Source: Bacteroidota bacterium
GTDB taxonomy: Bacteria > Bacteroidota > Bacteroidia > AKYH767-A > OLB10
Reading direction: 5' to 3'
DNA length: 64,000 bases
Assembly: GCA_016713925.1 (NCBI GenBank)
Contig: JADJOH010000008.1
Coordinates: forward strand, 186,117-250,116
Position 1 is the stretch's first letter, and the number at the start of each line of letters is the position of its first letter. The position numbers and the translations under genes are program-made. Below the pieces are notes generated by a model. The model was not told where the DNA came from. It was given only the letters and a program-made list of their open reading frames with translations, and searched no databases. Below are positions 17,961 through 61,164 of this stretch, one piece after another.

Positions 17961-18509
17961 TTAGCTTACTTCGCTCCCGGGATGAAATTGTATGGCATAT
18001 TGCAATAATTCTTCACCGGTATTTTCATAGATGATACGCTTTTCATAGGACAAGCCGAGCTTTTCCAGAAGCCGGATAGAAGCCTTGTTTTCTTCCAGGG
18101 TGATTGCAATGATTCTTTCTAAATGATGTCTTTCTTTTCCATCAGCAAGGACTGCTGCAGCGGCTTCCATCGCATAACCCTTTCCCGTAAATTGTGGAAG
18201 AAAAGCAAATCCGATATCCGTCTCTTCCCAGTGATCACGCCGGATTAATCCACAAATGCCCACGGGTGTTTCTGTTTCTTTCAATGCAACAAGATACAGT
18301 CCATACCCATATTTTTGATAACTGCTTACGGGTCCGTTGTGAATGTACTTTACCGCATCCGCTATTGTGTGAACATGCCGGTCGCCAATGTAACGCAGCC
18401 ATCCTTCGGTGTTTAAAAGTTCTACTATGAAGGGCGCATCATTTTCGTTCAATTCGCGAAGAAAAAGTCGGGTGGTATTTAAGAGGATGTTCATCTCAGA
18501 AAGGCTCAC
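17961..18509 (-). CDS. GNAT N-acetyltransferase (RimJ/RimL type)
   Basis: 'TTRLFLREL', 'DIGFAFLPQFTGKGYAMEAA', 'NKASIRLLEKLG'. Confidence 0.9.
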   Translation of the reverse strand: MSLSEMNILLNTTRLFLRELNENDAPFIVELLNTEGWLRYIGDRHVHTIADAVKYIHNGPVSSYQKYGYGLYLVALKETETPVGICGLIRRDHWEETDIGFAFLPQFTGKGYAMEAAAAVLADGKERHHLERIIAITLEENKASIRLLEKLGLSYEKRIIYENTGEELLQYAIQFHPGSEVS

Positions 18510-18514
18510 CGCAT

Positions 18515-18883
18515 TTAGTATTCAATAAACAGTACCAGATTTCTACCACCCTCCCGGAACGCCGCATTCTTCCAATCATAATTATTTACGCCTGAATAGA
18601 GTAATGAATCGTTGCCGGGCTGTACCAGAGTGACTTGAAAAGTAGAAAAGAAATTGCTGGGTAATACATGTCCTCCCGAACCTTCAATCGCCGTAAAAAT
18701 AAAGGTGGTGTCGAAGGGTGGAATGGTGTCCTCCGTTAATAAAATGGGGTTACCAATATAGGAAGCTTCCAGGCGAAGGAATTGATCTCCCTTGTTCACC
18801 ACATAGTAATAGCCGGTAGTGACCGGTTCCTTGATGGTGGTACAGGCGGAAAAGATCAGTAGGAGTAGGAGAACAGGTTTCAT
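18515..18883 (-). CDS. hypothetical lipoprotein
   Basis: MKPVLLLLLIFSA-C lipobox; 5 nt from the next gene. Confidence 0.7.
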   Translation of the reverse strand: MKPVLLLLLIFSACTTIKEPVTTGYYYVVNKGDQFLRLEASYIGNPILLTEDTIPPFDTTFIFTAIEGSGGHVLPSNFFSTFQVTLVQPGNDSLLYSGVNNYDWKNAAFREGGRNLVLFIEY

Positions 18884-19232
18884 TTTTCTTGCAGACAGTT
18901 CTAAGAAGTGATGAAAATAATAAAATTAAAATGAATATACCTTATTTTTCTACAGGTTTTTAAAATTGAAATATCGGAGCAATCCGATGACCAGGTCCTG
19001 ACTTGTACCTGCATTCATGGGTGAAATTATAAGTTAACAGAATTCAGCCTTTTAGTAAATGGTTTTCTACTTTAACCGCACTAAGAGTAGATACAAAGGA
19101 AATTAGAGTAATTAAAACGCCATCCAGAGTAGTAACGATTCCAAACTTAAACTTACCTATGCTGAAGCTTCGGCAGGCAGGCGCTGCGTTCGCGGCGGGT
19201 TCGTGGCGGTCGCTGCGCCTGCCTGTCGGCAG

Positions 19233-20686
19233 CTACTGTTTGGACACATCTTTAAGTGTAATTTGAAGCCAATTTCCATCCTTCATAAATATTCTCAAAT
19301 TTTTCTACGCCTTTTAGTAATATAATTGGGCCTGGTGGTCTTTGATTTGGATTTCCTTTCCAACCACCCAATCTTCCTATTATCCATGATGCCCATGCTA
19401 GTACTTTAGGAGAATATGGGTTTGTTGTGGCTTCAGTTACTTTTAATTTTTGCTCGATTTTTTCCAAGCATTCTATTTCTTTCTCGTCGAAGACGTTTGT
19501 TATGGGCTGGCTTTTTCCACTCCATATGCAAGGTAGAGTTGCATCACTTTTAGTGCAGATGCCAACACCAACAGATAGAGTTTTCTAATACCCCATCCAT
19601 TTTTAAGTTGGGTTTGCTCTATTTTAAATCCTTGCTTCTTAGTCAATCGAAACAACTGTTCAATATACCATCTTTGTTTATAACGTTCAATGATTTTCTC
19701 TGCATCTTCACCTGTTCGTACTTCAATTGTAGTGAGAATTCGCCAGTGTATCGGATCCTTTATTTTTACATTACTTTTTTCCTGAACATTTACTACAAAT
19801 AACTCTTTTGACTTTGGTAATTCCTTGTTAATATATTTCCCATGTGGTCGTTCTAACTCTACTTTGCATACTTTAATTTCGGCTTGTGCTATCCTTGCAA
19901 TCTTTTGTTTTCTTAAATCTTTAATTATCGGAATGGATAATTGACCGAGCGACTTTGACTTTTTAATGGTTTCATCCATTGAACTTCCATCTGCAAGTTT
20001 CCTGTCACTTCTGCTTCTAATTATTAAATCAGTCCGGTCATCCGGCACAGTGCAAAACTGATCATAAATGTCACCTTCACGATCTTCTATTATCGTGATT
20101 GTTGCTGCTTCTGATAATATAGCTTTTGAGCTTTCACTCGCTTTTATCCACTTATAGGACTCCTTTTCTTCAATGGGTTGTTGCTTATAAATCCGTGTTG
20201 TATTGTTTGACTTATCTTCTTTTCGATGCCATAATTGTACATCGGAATAGCCCAACAAATCTTCAGTTTGGGCATCAAGTACCAAGCTAATATGAGTTAA
20301 AAAGCCTAACCCCATTTTGTTGCCAACTAATCCTAAACCGCTATCTTCTTCTATGCTTTCCTTTAGATGCCCTAAACCATAAGAACTACTATCTTGAATT
20401 ACTAATACATCTTTTCCTTGAACATTTCTTTTACATCGTTTCGTTAGAGAACTGATGAGCTCTGCCTCACTAACGTTTTCATTATCCAAAAACCTGTAAA
20501 ACCCTTTTTGATCAGCTTCAGTTAACGTGCTACCGTGAACAGAACTTGTTCGAGAAATTACTAAGGCTGAAACAACCTTTCTTGCCCTGTCTTCTAACCT
20601 TTTATCGCTCAGTTCGCCTTCGAAATCAATTATATAATTTGGTTTCTTCATAAGGCTAATTTAATACATTTGTGTCCAAACAGTAG
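19233..20686 (-). mobile_element. IS4-family insertion sequence (Tn5/IS50-like transposase), 1454 bp
   Basis: Perfect 16-bp TIRs CTACTGTTTGGACACA (19233-19248) and TGTGTCCAAACAGTAG (20671-20686); 10-bp TSD CTGTCGGCAG at 19223-19232 and 20687-20696. Confidence 0.95.
19252..20651 (-). CDS. IS4-family DDE transposase (one frameshift near 19520)
   Basis: 'IQDSS', 'EDREGDIY', Y-R-E-K motif (YKQRWYIEQLFRLTK) and Tn5-like dimerisation tail 'WIIGRLGGW...PPG'. Adding one A to the GAAAAAGCC run restores a single ORF. Confidence 0.9.
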
Positions 20687-20846
20687 CTGTCGGCAGACAG
20701 GTTTAAACAGAAGATTTAATTATCAGAATATTCATTTATTCAAAACTAAGATTATTTATAGTCGAAAAATAAAGTTGAATTTCCGGGAAAAACTGATTGT
20801 ATTCATCTTCAAAAGCTGAGTATTGTTTTCTGCCCTCTTTGCAACC

Positions 20847-20920
20847 CTTGGACTTCGAAGCTTTAGCGAAGTAGTCTCCATATTACCCTTTGGACATCGA
20901 AGCTTTAGCGTAGGTGGGTT
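20847..20920. repeat. two REP-like CGAAGCTTTAGCG units
   Basis: ggacttcgaagctttagcgaagtagtc and ggacatcgaagctttagcgtaggtggg; similar in reverse complement to units at ~7578 and ~7750. Confidence 0.65.
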
Positions 20921-21137
20921 AAAAGCCGTAAATATTTTGTTCTTGTCAATCTAAATCCATAAGTAAATTGAAATTGATAACACTGCACTAAAGGTAAAAG
21001 TCAGGAAATAAAAATGTATTCATCTTTTATTACAGGTTTTTAAATGTCGTTGCCGGAGCAATCCGTTGACCAGATACCATGAAGAGTCTGCCAATAGATG
21101 CTCTGGATTTCGTACATTCATTCGGGCTTGAAAAAGC

Positions 21138-21171
21138 ACCACCCCTTACAAATGATGTTGCAAGGGGTGGT
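21138..21171 (-). terminator. rho-independent terminator
   Basis: accacccctt...aaggggtggt stem with an A-tract on + (U-tract on -), just after the 21199 stop. Confidence 0.65.
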
Positions 21172-21198
21172 AAGAGGTGTTTGTGGTGTATCCGGAAT

Positions 21199-22959
21199 CT
21201 ACTCGATAACGACCAGCTTTCTGGAAGTGGTGCTTCTGCCATCATTCACTTTGAGAATATAGATGGCCGGTGAAAGCATGGAAATGTTGATTTGATTGGG
21301 TGTTCCGGGATCGGTTGCATTTAATGTAAAAGCTTTCATGAGTTGGCCGGAGAGATCAAAGATGCTGATGTTATATTCGCCTTTTTCTTCAAAGGTGAGA
21401 TAAACTTCCTTATTTGCCGGGTTGGGGTAGACATCAAAATTATTTTCCGGTTTGGTGGTTTCTTTCTCACTAATGCGGGGTGTACAAGGGCCGGTGATGA
21501 AAGTGGTTAGACTGGAGAAGGGAGAAGTTACATCCACGCCGGTCGTATCACAAACCGTGCGCACCTGCCAGATATAAGCGGTATTGCATGTCAGATTATT
21601 GATAGTAGTTTTTTTGTTCGTGGAATTCACGAAACGCTTTCTCCAATTGATGGCGGTGGTTTTTTTATACCATACTTCATATTGATCTGCTCCGGGTACA
21701 AAGTTCCATTGGAGTACTGCATTCGTAGAAGTGATATTGATGGTGCTGTTTCCGCCAGGACTCACACAGGGTGCAGGTTGATTGATTCTGGCAGTAGCGC
21801 CTCCTACAACATAAACATTGTAATCACTGCCCAATGCAAAAGCGGAGGAGTTGCTGCCGGCGGTGACGATGCTCCATGCTGAACTCCCGTTACTATTGAC
21901 TTTACAAACGGCCATGCCTGTCAATACACCGGCTGCAAGGTAAGCGTTATTGTAACTATCCATCATCATCTGAGCATGGAGGAGAAAATTATAGGTGCTG
22001 TCGGCATTTGGATTTGCCCAAAGTATTGCACCGCTGCTATCCGTTTTGAGAAAGGAGGATCCTCCACTCCCTGTATTCGGGAAACCACAGGCAACAGGAG
22101 AATTGTCACTACCCACTTCAACACGGAAAGCAGTAAGCGGATAGTTGGATAACCAAATTTGTCCACCGGCAGGATTTAGTTTTCGCAATGCTGTTGAATT
22201 TGCAACGGTAGTACTCGCTGAAACCACATAAGTATTTCCGAAAGCATCGCCTGCGGCATCACCAACAGTAAGACTGTTTACACCTGCCAAACTCCATTTA
22301 TGATTTCCGGATTTTGAAATCTTTGAATAGCCATTGATGTTTCCTGTGATTCCACGGCAAATAATCAGGATATTGTTATCAGGGGTAAATTTAAAATTTA
22401 GGGGAGCTCCAATACCGGCTGAATCCAGATAGGTCCAAAGGGTACTACCGGTGGGAGAGAATTTCTTGACTTTGGTTCGCTGGCCTGCAGCACCAATTCC
22501 AATACCCAGGACATAGATATTGCCTGAACCATCAATCAAACATTTCTTAGTGTACGATCCATCAAAACTATTTTCATATACATTTCTCCAGAGTAAAGTT
22601 CCTGCGGTATTAAATTTCATTACAATACTGGCAGCATTCACGGGATTGGAATAACCGGAGCGTGATGTTCCGGTAACGATAATATTTCCCTGTGGATCTA
22701 CGGCCACCCATGTCGCTACTTCGTGACGGGTATTGTCGAGGTTGTCAAATTTGGCATCCCATTTAAAATTCCCATTGGCATCACGTTTCGTTAATGTAAT
22801 GTCGCCGGCAGGATTATAATCCCAGTCAACGGTGAATACATTGTTGTATTTGTCGAGAGCAATACTCACCCCTCTGGTAGGTTCATTCCAATCCACTGCA
22901 GCTTGTGATTGTGCAAACAATGGACTCATCAGGATCAGGAGACTTAAGAATAGTTTCAT
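21199..22959 (-). CDS. T9SS protein: beta-propeller (SBBP-like) + FN3 + CTD
   Basis: Likely start MKLFLSLL; repeats 'AVDPQGNIIVTG', 'DGSGNIYVLG' and 'DAFGNTYV'; FN3 'LQWN...YEVWY...Y.WQVR'; CTD 'VYPNPAN...IFDLSGQ...IYILKV'. Confidence 0.9.
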   Translation of the reverse strand: MKLFLSLLILMSPLFAQSQAAVDWNEPTRGVSIALDKYNNVFTVDWDYNPAGDITLTKRDANGNFKWDAKFDNLDNTRHEVATWVAVDPQGNIIVTGTSRSGYSNPVNAASIVMKFNTAGTLLWRNVYENSFDGSYTKKCLIDGSGNIYVLGIGIGAAGQRTKVKKFSPTGSTLWTYLDSAGIGAPLNFKFTPDNNILIICRGITGNINGYSKISKSGNHKWSLAGVNSLTVGDAAGDAFGNTYVVSASTTVANSTALRKLNPAGGQIWLSNYPLTAFRVEVGSDNSPVACGFPNTGSGGSSFLKTDSSGAILWANPNADSTYNFLLHAQMMMDSYNNAYLAAGVLTGMAVCKVNSNGSSAWSIVTAGSNSSAFALGSDYNVYVVGGATARINQPAPCVSPGGNSTINITSTNAVLQWNFVPGADQYEVWYKKTTAINWRKRFVNSTNKKTTINNLTCNTAYIWQVRTVCDTTGVDVTSPFSSLTTFITGPCTPRISEKETTKPENNFDVYPNPANKEVYLTFEEKGEYNISIFDLSGQLMKAFTLNATDPGTPNQINISMLSPAIYILKVNDGRSTTSRKLVVIE

Positions 22960-58618: not shown

Positions 58619-58725
58619 GCAACGTTCGCTACGGTAGAGCAGCGGACGCAACGGGTAGTTGGTATGTTTAAACCTGCCGGCAGGAAGGCGCAACGTGCTT
58701 TTCGGTAAAGCAGCGGACGCAATGG
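58619..58725. repeat. ~35-bp direct repeat pair bracketing a CCTGCCGGCAGG palindrome
   Basis: cggtagagcagcggacgcaa (58632) and cggtaaagcagcggacgcaa (58703); palindrome at 58673-58684. Confidence 0.7.
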
Positions 58726-60213: not shown

Positions 60214-60690
60214 GTAATGACAGGTCGCGACCTGTCACCACACGACCTGTCACCACACGGCCTGTCACCACACGACCTGTCACCACACGACCTGTCACCA
60301 CACGATCTGTCACCACACCCACGACCTGTCTCTACAACCACGACGTGTCACTACACCCCGGTCATCATCGTAAGGACAGGCCGCGACCTGTCCCTACAAC
60401 CACCACCTCTCCCTACAACCACGACGTGTCACCACAACCACGACCAGTCACCACAACCACGACCTGTCCCTACACCCCGGTCATCATCGTAAGGACAGGT
60501 CGCGACCTGTCCCTACACCCACGACCTGTCCCTATAATGACCTGTGACCACCATCCTGATCATCGTTGTAAGGACAGGTCGCGACCTGTCCCTACACCCA
60601 CGACCTATCCCTACACCCACGACCTATCCCTACACCCACGACCTGTCACTACAACCACGACCTGTCACTACCGCGACCTGTGACTACTGC
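60214..60690. repeat. REP array: four full GACAGGT/CCGCGACCTGTC palindromes plus many CACGACCTGTC half-sites
   Basis: Full copies at 60214, 60370, 60489 and 60568; five tandem 15-mers CACGACCTGTCACCA at 60241-60315. Confidence 0.92.
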
Positions 60691-61164
60691 GGCTTGTGGT
60701 ATTTTTTCCATCCACCGTTTCGGATTTAACCGGATATAGTTTTTCATACAAATAAATGCTGATTCGTTTCGGACGATATGATCATGAAAGGAACGATGCC
60801 ATTCAAAATCATGTACACCAGCCAGATGAATATATTTTGAGGTAGTGGTTTTATATGCACCCATCAATTCGGACAGGCTTTTGATCTTTCCCTGATAGGA
60901 AGGTTCATCGGTAATTTCAAGGATTCCATGAATATGATCGGGCATTACTATGAAGCCGTGAGATTTGAGGTAAGGGTAAGTTTTAAGCAACCAATCCCAT
61001 TGCTGATCTACTATATGACCATAATCCGATAATACCATTTTGCTATCAAACACATTACCAAAGTAAGGCTTTCTGTATTTCACTATGGAAGTAATGAAGT
61101 ACCGATTGCATGATGAATAGTCGAATCCGGGTAGCCGATTCTTTTTACGGGTGAAATATTTCAT
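60649..61164 (-). mobile_element. REP-associated tyrosine transposase (RAYT, Y1/HUH family)
   Basis: 'RLPGFDYS...YFITS', HUH 'MPDHIHGIL', 'MGAYKTTTS', 'WHRSFHDHIVRN...YIRLNP'; abuts the REP array. Confidence 0.92.

Follow-up and report, generated by a model that had tools for sequence, protein, structure and literature searches.

Insertion into repetitive extragenic palindromic (REP) sequences is established for insertion sequences (ISs) of the IS3, IS110, IS4, IS256 and IS5 families; in the IS110 family, targeting is RNA-guided. It is also known that an IS that targets REPs or other palindromes can persist without breaking genes, and that such targeting shapes the sites of genome rearrangement. 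The dimeric synaptic complex of Tn5 favours a weakly symmetric target, A-GNTYWRANC-T, and the duplications made by IS231A are reportedly variable in length, ranging from 10 to 12 bp. For IS231A, the target is quoted as GGG(N)5CCC (Hallet et al. 1994, cited in PMC2266710), and within the IS4 family the arm specificity of subgroups IS4 and IS4Sa has been called 'spectacular' (De Palmenaer et al. 2008, PMC2266710). In ISRm22 from Sinorhizobium meliloti 1021, all copies reside in REPs, on the axis of the palindrome, with a direct repeat of 6 bp and with hybrid repeats in some cases (Tobes & Pareja 2006, PMC1525189). Here, we analysed a stretch of 64,000 nucleotides from a Bacteroidota bacterium (assembly GCA_016713925.1, contig JADJOH010000008.1, positions 186,117 to 250,116; the window). 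It carries an IS4-family, Tn5/IS50-like IS, whose insertion is in all likelihood (probability roughly 0.85) specific for the dyad axis of a dispersed, pre-existing 20-bp palindrome, designated P (CCTGCCTGCCGGCAGGCAGG).

The element and its insertion sites in this genome

Removal of the IS and of one copy of its target site duplication (TSD) restores CCTGC-CTGTCGGCAG-ACAGG, that is CCTGCCTGTCGGCAGACAGG, in which 8 of 10 positions form Watson-Crick pairs and which deviates from the genomic consensus of P at 2 positions. A reading made from the window's sequence alone (the sequence-only reading) had proposed exactly this, namely that a near-perfect 20-bp palindrome is rebuilt whose centre is the 10-bp TSD, and both points are borne out by the bases on either side of the element. 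The IS itself is also where that reading saw it, except that the span given, 19160 to 20701, takes in part of the flanking repeat; the true ends are at 19233 and 20686.

Following the check suggested by the sequence-only reading for copies bounded by CTACTGTTTGGACACA, every occurrence of the 16-bp IS end in the 4.6-Mb genome was collected. The IS resides in P, in the same register, at six sites: four full copies (C8:205349, C1:7908, C7:117873 and C8:1078745), one decayed copy (C2:529660), whose far end likewise lies in P, and one solo end (C8:611238). The flanks of the four full copies and of the two further ends read CCTGCCTGCCGGCAG-IS-CTGCCGGCAGGCAGG, with outer flanks that are mutually unrelated. 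The duplication at the genomic copies is the central 10 bp of P, CTGCCGGCAG, cut out between the arms CCTGC and GCAGG. Older fragments of the IS are also present in the genome. In two congeneric species, IS copies with 79–90% identity were detected, and every end abuts P or a 19-bp variant, CCTGCCTGC(A/T)GCAGGCAGG. Unrelated TSDs and targets, which the sequence-only reading had named as refuting its proposal, were found neither in the other genomic copies nor in these diverged ones. All 6 genomic sites and all congener ends found thus show the 'type 1 association' defined for REP-targeting ISs (Tobes & Pareja 2006).

P sites without an IS number 24 in the genome, of which 10 are exact and 14 have up to 3 mismatches. 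Of the 12-bp cores of the CCTGCCGGCAGG type, 13 exist in the genome, 10 of them within a full P, and the empty core that had been spotted near position 58673 is indeed there (Table 1). By chance, any one 20-mer should turn up about 1e-5 times in 4.6 Mb. Since P occurs 10 times exactly and 6 of 6 IS sites lie in it, chance is excluded. Sixteen of the 24 empty P sites lie outside open reading frames (ORFs) of at least 120 aa, as compared to about 15% expected by chance, such ORFs covering 85% of the genome. The same holds for 11 of the 12 flanks at the six IS sites. This location would also be predicted if the IS inserted at random and only insertions into harmless intergenic palindromes survived; genic insertions are expected to be purged, and the observed ones are without exception extragenic or close to it. 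However, P sites account for only ~600 bp in a genome of 4.6 Mb, ~10–15% of which is intergenic, and the IS lies in the same register every time, without a shift of even one base. Selection cannot give such precision, and we regard this explanation as hardly credible.

To place P in a wider context, 301 evenly sampled Bacteroidota genomes from 144 genera were surveyed. The exact 20-mer is present in 27 of these genomes (25 genera), in up to 20 copies, and its non-complemented reverse in none of the 301. The transposase family was detected in 7 of these genomes; of the 27 that bear P, 26 are devoid of it. P is thus independent of the IS, that is, a pre-existing, mostly extragenic repeat. The possibility that solitary P sites are excision footprints was rejected, as the doubled TSD, CTGCCGGCAGCTGCCGGCAG, occurs nowhere in the genome and P exists without the IS family in 26 others.

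Like REPs, which are short imperfect palindromes outside genes, P is a short (20 bp), mostly extragenic palindrome; however, REPs typically exceed 100 copies per genome, as compared to ~30 P-type sites here, empty and occupied ones together. An association of P with a REP-associated tyrosine transposase (RAYT) was not seen in the window, whose RAYT-like ORF is flanked by a different palindrome; a P-adjacent RAYT was not looked for elsewhere in the genome. This ORF (60649–61164, minus strand) is accompanied on one side by an array of GGACAGGTCGCGACCTGTCC at 60217–60700 with many half-site repeats. The designation 'REP-targeting specialist' from the sequence-only reading therefore holds as far as the targeting of a palindrome is concerned, which is dispersed, mostly extragenic and also present in IS-free genomes, whereas with ~30 copies 'REP' is an analogy only. 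The 'safe harbour' that P was proposed to provide would be in line with its extragenic location.

The transposase assigns the element to its family, as the sequence-only reading had anticipated. Within the 383-aa ORF, Pfam recognizes PF14706 (DNA-binding domain of the Tn5 transposase; residues 13–60) and PF01609 (DDE). The majority consensus of the four copies, 1455 bp in length, contains a single ORF of 466 aa, and intact homologues of 466 aa exist. The consensus protein scores 293 bits against NCBIfam NF033590 'IS4 family transposase' (cutoff 160), and its matches in the PDB are the Tn5 transposase and the Tn5 inhibitor protein only (E=3e-18). Residues D87, D190 and E331 align with the Tn5 motifs IEDTTS, VCDREADI and RWRIEE, and the YREK signature Y-(2)-R-(3)-E-(6)-K (Y324, R327, E331 and K338) aligns with YTHRWRIEEFHKAWK of Tn5; all these residues are invariant among 17 relatives. 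Besides the DDE triad and the YREK signature, the element shares with the IS4 family short inverted repeats (16 bp, perfect) and a TSD of about one helical turn (10 bp; 9–12 bp in relatives). With the IS50 subgroup it shares 5'-CT ends (CTAC...) and the Tn5-type N-terminal domain, and its closest matches in the PDB are to the Tn5 (IS50) transposase. Thus, the element is an IS4-family, Tn5/IS50-like IS. In each of the four near-identical copies the frame is broken by private 1-bp indels in T/A homopolymers; in the window copy, the T homopolymer at ~19512–19516 is one base short (T5, consensus T6). Such private indels are typical of long-read assembly errors and may be of this kind, and other frameshifts in the assembly need to be treated with caution. 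The features of the locus are compiled in Table 1.

Table 1. Coordinates of the insertion sequence, its target and neighbouring repeats in the window
Feature	Position	Strand	Remarks
Insertion sequence, IS4 family, Tn5/IS50-like	19233–20686	- (transposase strand)	1454 bp; 4 genome copies, 99.6–100% identity
Left terminal inverted repeat CTACTGTTTGGACACA	19233–19248	+	16 bp
Right terminal inverted repeat TGTGTCCAAACAGTAG	20671–20686	+	perfect reverse complement of left repeat
TSD, left copy CTGTCGGCAG	19223–19232		10 bp; non-symmetric T variant directly repeated in right copy
TSD, right copy CTGTCGGCAG	20687–20696		10/10 match to left copy
Left outer arm CCTGC of split P	19218–19222		sequence read
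Right outer arm ACAGG (consensus GCAGG) of split P	20697–20701		sequence read
Transposase ORF, N-terminal part	19500–20651	-	383 aa; Tn5-type DNA-binding domain and DDE core
Transposase, C-terminal part, other frame	19252–19467	-	71 aa
Neighbouring P-like palindrome CTTACCTATGCTGAAGCTTCGGCAGGCAGG	19152–19181		30 bp; in 4/8 aligned copies of repeat E
GC-rich segment CGCTGCGTTCGCGGCGGGTTCGTGGCGGTCGCTGCG separating the two palindromes	19182–19217		36 bp; in repeat E copies, one inverted
Repeat E, resembling MITEs (miniature inverted-repeat transposable elements), inverted termini TCCTGACTTGTACC	18996–21007		~548 bp without IS and one TSD copy
Empty core palindrome CCTGCCGGCAGG	58673–58684		12 bp

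Duplications, target classes and transposase phylogeny among relatives

Relatives of the element were collected at 80 loci (36–80% protein identity, nearly all Bacteroidota, one genome per species), and the IS ends were located via the terminus CTACNNTNNGGACACA, which is conserved among them. For 65 insertions both flanks were available (36–87% transposase identity), and 46 of these exhibit an exact direct repeat of 9–12 bp. These duplications bear on a different interpretation of the locus. On a perfect palindrome, a target duplication and a longer inverted repeat predict the same flanks, and the palindrome halves might hence be the outer part of the IS's own inverted repeats, which would then measure 31 bp, with solo P sites as remnants after loss of the core. 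The inverted-looking flanks of a few relatives and the state of the repeat hosting P in the window, where P represents 20 inserted bp in comparison with seven paralogous copies, would fit this idea (both are taken up below). However, 40 of the 46 clean duplications are not self-complementary, that is, they are asymmetric direct repeats; examples between CCTGC and GCAGG are CTACCGGCAG, CTTCCGGCAG, CTACCGGACAG, CTGATGTCAG and CTGCCGGCGAG. Likewise, the T at position 4 of the CTGTCGGCAG variant in the window belongs to a direct repeat matching at 10 of 10 positions, whereas the same flanks read as inverted 15-mers have 3 mismatches. Such asymmetric direct repeats identify the palindrome halves as target rather than as IS. 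Moreover, copies with identical transposases reside in different hairpins of the same genome, in Chitinophagaceae MMS25-I14 (L082–L085) and in Mucilaginibacter X4EP1 (L049–L058). Beyond the P halves, neither the genomic and congener copies nor the relatives show a duplication, and the absence of doubled-TSD footprints from the genome and of the IS family from nearly all P-bearing genomes points the same way. An extension of the inverted repeats was therefore rejected, on account of the asymmetric direct duplications, the identical transposases in different hairpins and the presence of P in IS-free genomes, and its probability appears very small.

To characterize the targets, 50 of them were reconstructed, 46 from exact duplications and 4 from duplications with one mismatch. 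Each was scored for its longest perfect stem centred no more than 1.5 bp from the centre of the duplication, with 11,600 positions in the same loci as controls. Stems of at least 5 bp were found in 76% of the targets as compared to 5% of the controls; with the minimum raised to 6 bp, the shares were 68% and 1.6%, respectively. The duplications are 9 bp (n=25), 10 bp (n=16), 11 bp (n=8) or 12 bp (n=1) long. When only insertions between CCTGC and GCAGG arms are considered, the TSD measures 9 bp in 7, 10 bp in 9 and 11 bp in 4 cases, and always abuts the arms. The length differs even between closely related transposases (9 bp at L019, 11 bp at L029 and L030). As the TSD abuts the arms at 9 to 11 bp alike, the cut positions follow the arms and not a fixed stagger.

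The prevalence of dyad symmetry raises the question of whether the transposase recognizes a structure, such as an extruded cruciform or a single-stranded DNA hairpin, with P merely being an available perfect palindrome. Indeed, dyad symmetry is the common denominator of targets whose sequences are very different across the family, one deep clade uses terminator-like hairpins, and the duplication length varies between 9 and 12 bp. In this genome, perfect hairpins (stem of at least 8 bp, loop of up to 11 nt) number 1188, of which ~16 are P-type, occupied sites included. At least 44 are copies of another zero-loop palindrome, GACAGGTCGCGACCTGTC (RAYT-type), the repeat that accompanies the RAYT-like ORF of the window, and none of these is used by the IS. 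All six insertions nevertheless lie in P, and structure alone does not explain the targeting. Furthermore, the relatives share a half-site preference, CCYSC/CY, with C(-5) at ~70%, C(-4) at 85%, Y(-3) at 96%, S(-2) at ~77%, C(-1) at ~67%, C(+1) at ~80% and Y(+2) at 92%, percentages that are descriptive since the insertions are not phylogenetically independent, a limit that counts among the points against specific targeting assembled below. About 16 sites in this genome with arms only (CCTGC-N9-11-GCAGG) and unrelated centres are unoccupied, which with 6 events says little on the role of the centre. Finally, in a maximum-likelihood tree of 56 transposases, the target class (P-type, CCTC...GAGG type, or other/terminator-like) requires 11 changes as compared to a mean of 24 after shuffling, a value that none of 200 shuffles reached. 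A clade with good support (100/99) consists essentially of P-type members only, and the deep clade mentioned above uses generic terminator-like hairpins. Target class thus tracks transposase phylogeny, which likewise speaks against recognition of structure as the sole determinant, an explanation that we consider improbable. A structural contribution, by cruciform extrusion, may still come on top of a sequence read-out.

Several observations weigh against insertion of the IS at the dyad axis of a pre-existing P. A clean duplication is missing in 19 of the 65 relatives, and the flanks at L002, L032 and L048 look inverted rather than direct; we attribute such duplication-less or hybrid flanks, with due reserve, to recombination between copies as described for ISRm22. 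None of the four copies in the assembly has an intact transposase gene, although the indels may be sequencing errors. As to the window locus, comparison of the joined flanks revealed that P, and thereby the IS, is hosted by the MITE-like repeat E. At the same position, the 20-bp P is missing from seven paralogous copies of repeat E, and P itself is consequently a clean insertion in the window copy. Hence, P came to this site as did the IS, and at first sight a joint arrival seems indicated. An orthologous site bearing P but free of the IS was not found when the joined flanks were searched for in 20 congeners.

Judged by these comparisons, palindrome targeting is a property of the whole Bacteroidota transposase clade. 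We propose the following scenario for this cut-and-paste IS. Its transposase, in which a DDE/YREK core is preceded by a Tn5-type domain that binds the IS ends, would act as a two-fold symmetric dimer, in which each protomer reads one half-site and places its active site relative to the arm. Strand transfer would occur 5 bp inside each arm, on either side of CTGCCGGCAG, so that the central 10 bp become duplicated. The duplication is 9, 10 or 11 bp long depending on the arm spacing, and the class of palindrome differs from lineage to lineage, being CCTGC...GCAGG in some, CCTC...GAGG in others and terminator-like hairpins in still others. Landing in extragenic palindromes would spare genes and may thereby confer a fitness benefit. 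If the half-site read-out is true, the clade would comprise natural relatives, with sequence specificity, of the Tn5 tagmentation enzyme, and provided that the specificity resides in the transposase, these enzymes could reveal by what means an active site of the Tn5 type is directed to a sequence.

Palindrome P and its host repeat

P behaves as a discrete unit: congeners, and likewise paralogous repeats, differ by its presence or absence as a clean 20-bp segment without duplication. An example is C2:1283821 of this genome (G000) as compared to L117 (G010:C6:87100–87800). When eight other P sites were compared with the closest congener, G010, P was conserved at 3; at 1 it was absent as a clean 20-bp indel, within a duplicated tRNA 3' half; at 3 it was missing, half-lost or swapped for heptamer arrays; and 1 site was not comparable. 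In this genome, P is usually set in arrays of 7-bp units (TTTCGTA/TTTCGCA or TTCTGAA/TTCAGAA), for instance at C8:111042, C2:605457, C2:1096263 and C7:394474. At one orthologous site, this congener has a heptamer array of ~150 bp with a degenerate palindrome, and the present genome has P alone. In other genomes, P is found within hairpin repeats (GTCATTCCGAGC...GAGG-P-AATC, G047) and within tRNA-like sequence (G179).

These properties can be combined with the behaviour of the transposases into a linked pair of proposals. That is, the clade would possess a heritable, lineage-specific read-out of two ~7-bp inverted half-sites with a stagger of 9–11 bp set by the arms, and P would be a discrete 20-bp unit that is cleanly gained and lost without duplication. 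We offer this pair tentatively, as a possibility that falls short of even odds.

The sequence-only reading had also regarded the restored palindrome as one arm of a larger inverted pair. This pair exists: cggcaggcaggcgc (19171–19184) and gcgcctgcctgtcg (19217–19230) are complementary at 13 of 14 positions, because the 30-bp P-like palindrome, whose 3' arm supplies the upstream partner, sits 36 bp upstream of P. The 36-bp segment between the two, CGCTGCGTTCGCGGCGGGTTCGTGGCGGTCGCTGCG, is located between TTAAA and GTTTAAAC in copies of repeat E and is inverted in the copy at C7:1394015. Repeat E exists in ~10 copies in this genome (among others at C7:1042375–1042874, C7:1400975–1401463 and C2:722930–723477) and in ~10 copies in G010. 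At the locus corresponding to the window insertion, the flanking genes of G010 are 85–93% identical, and its repeat E lies 14 bp away in the opposite orientation, without P and IS; orientation and offset suggest an independent insertion or an inversion. Inside the repeat E of the window, at 20830–20925, a motif of ~30 bp occurs twice (CCTTGGACTTCGAAGCTTTAGCGAAG and CTTTGGACATCGAAGCTTTAGCGTAG), and similar 'CGAAGCTTTAGCG' units are present elsewhere, e.g. near C2:1283600. A search of window positions 18500–21300 against Rfam returned no match.

Comparison with known insertion sequences

Insertion on the axis of a palindrome is already known for the IS4 family from ISRm22, and the element described here is a further example. 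What is added is a well-resolved Tn5-like case, with an exact register, a 20-bp site, switching of the target class along the tree and a TSD length that follows the arms. A prior description of the Bacteroidota clade was not found in the literature searched, which did not cover ISfinder entries. The arm-anchored stagger of 9–11 bp, the target-class switching and a phylum-wide 20-bp palindrome that acts as a clean indel appear to be the aspects worth following.

The element resembles ISRm22 in several respects: both elements have an IS4-family DDE transposase, all copies of either reside in a dispersed GC-rich palindromic repeat with insertion on the axis, and some direct repeats are hybrid, which is ascribed to recombination between copies. 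However, ISRm22 belongs to subgroup IS4Sa and to the Alphaproteobacteria and has a TSD of 6 bp, as compared to 9–12 bp here. In addition, the present element differs by its Tn5-type N-terminal domain, its 5'-CT ends and a behaviour that extends over an entire clade, with lineage-specific target classes. The best structural relative is IS50/Tn5, with which the element shares the aligned DDE/YREK residues, PF14706, the CT termini and a duplication of ~9 bp. In contrast to the present element, which appears to be essentially site-specific for a 20-bp palindrome and whose clade generates 9–12 bp according to arm spacing, Tn5 selects targets near-randomly and duplicates a fixed 9 bp. With IS231A, the element has in common the IS4 family, a symmetric GC-rich target and a variable duplication length; the half-sites and the host, a member of the Firmicutes, are different, and the preferred target of IS231A is not a dispersed repeat family. 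Finally, specific insertion into extragenic palindromic repeats is shared with IS1397/ISKpn1 of the IS3 family and with IS621, ISPpu9, ISPpu10 and ISPa11 of the IS110 family, but these elements rely on unrelated transposase families and chemistries and generate duplications of 0–4 bp.

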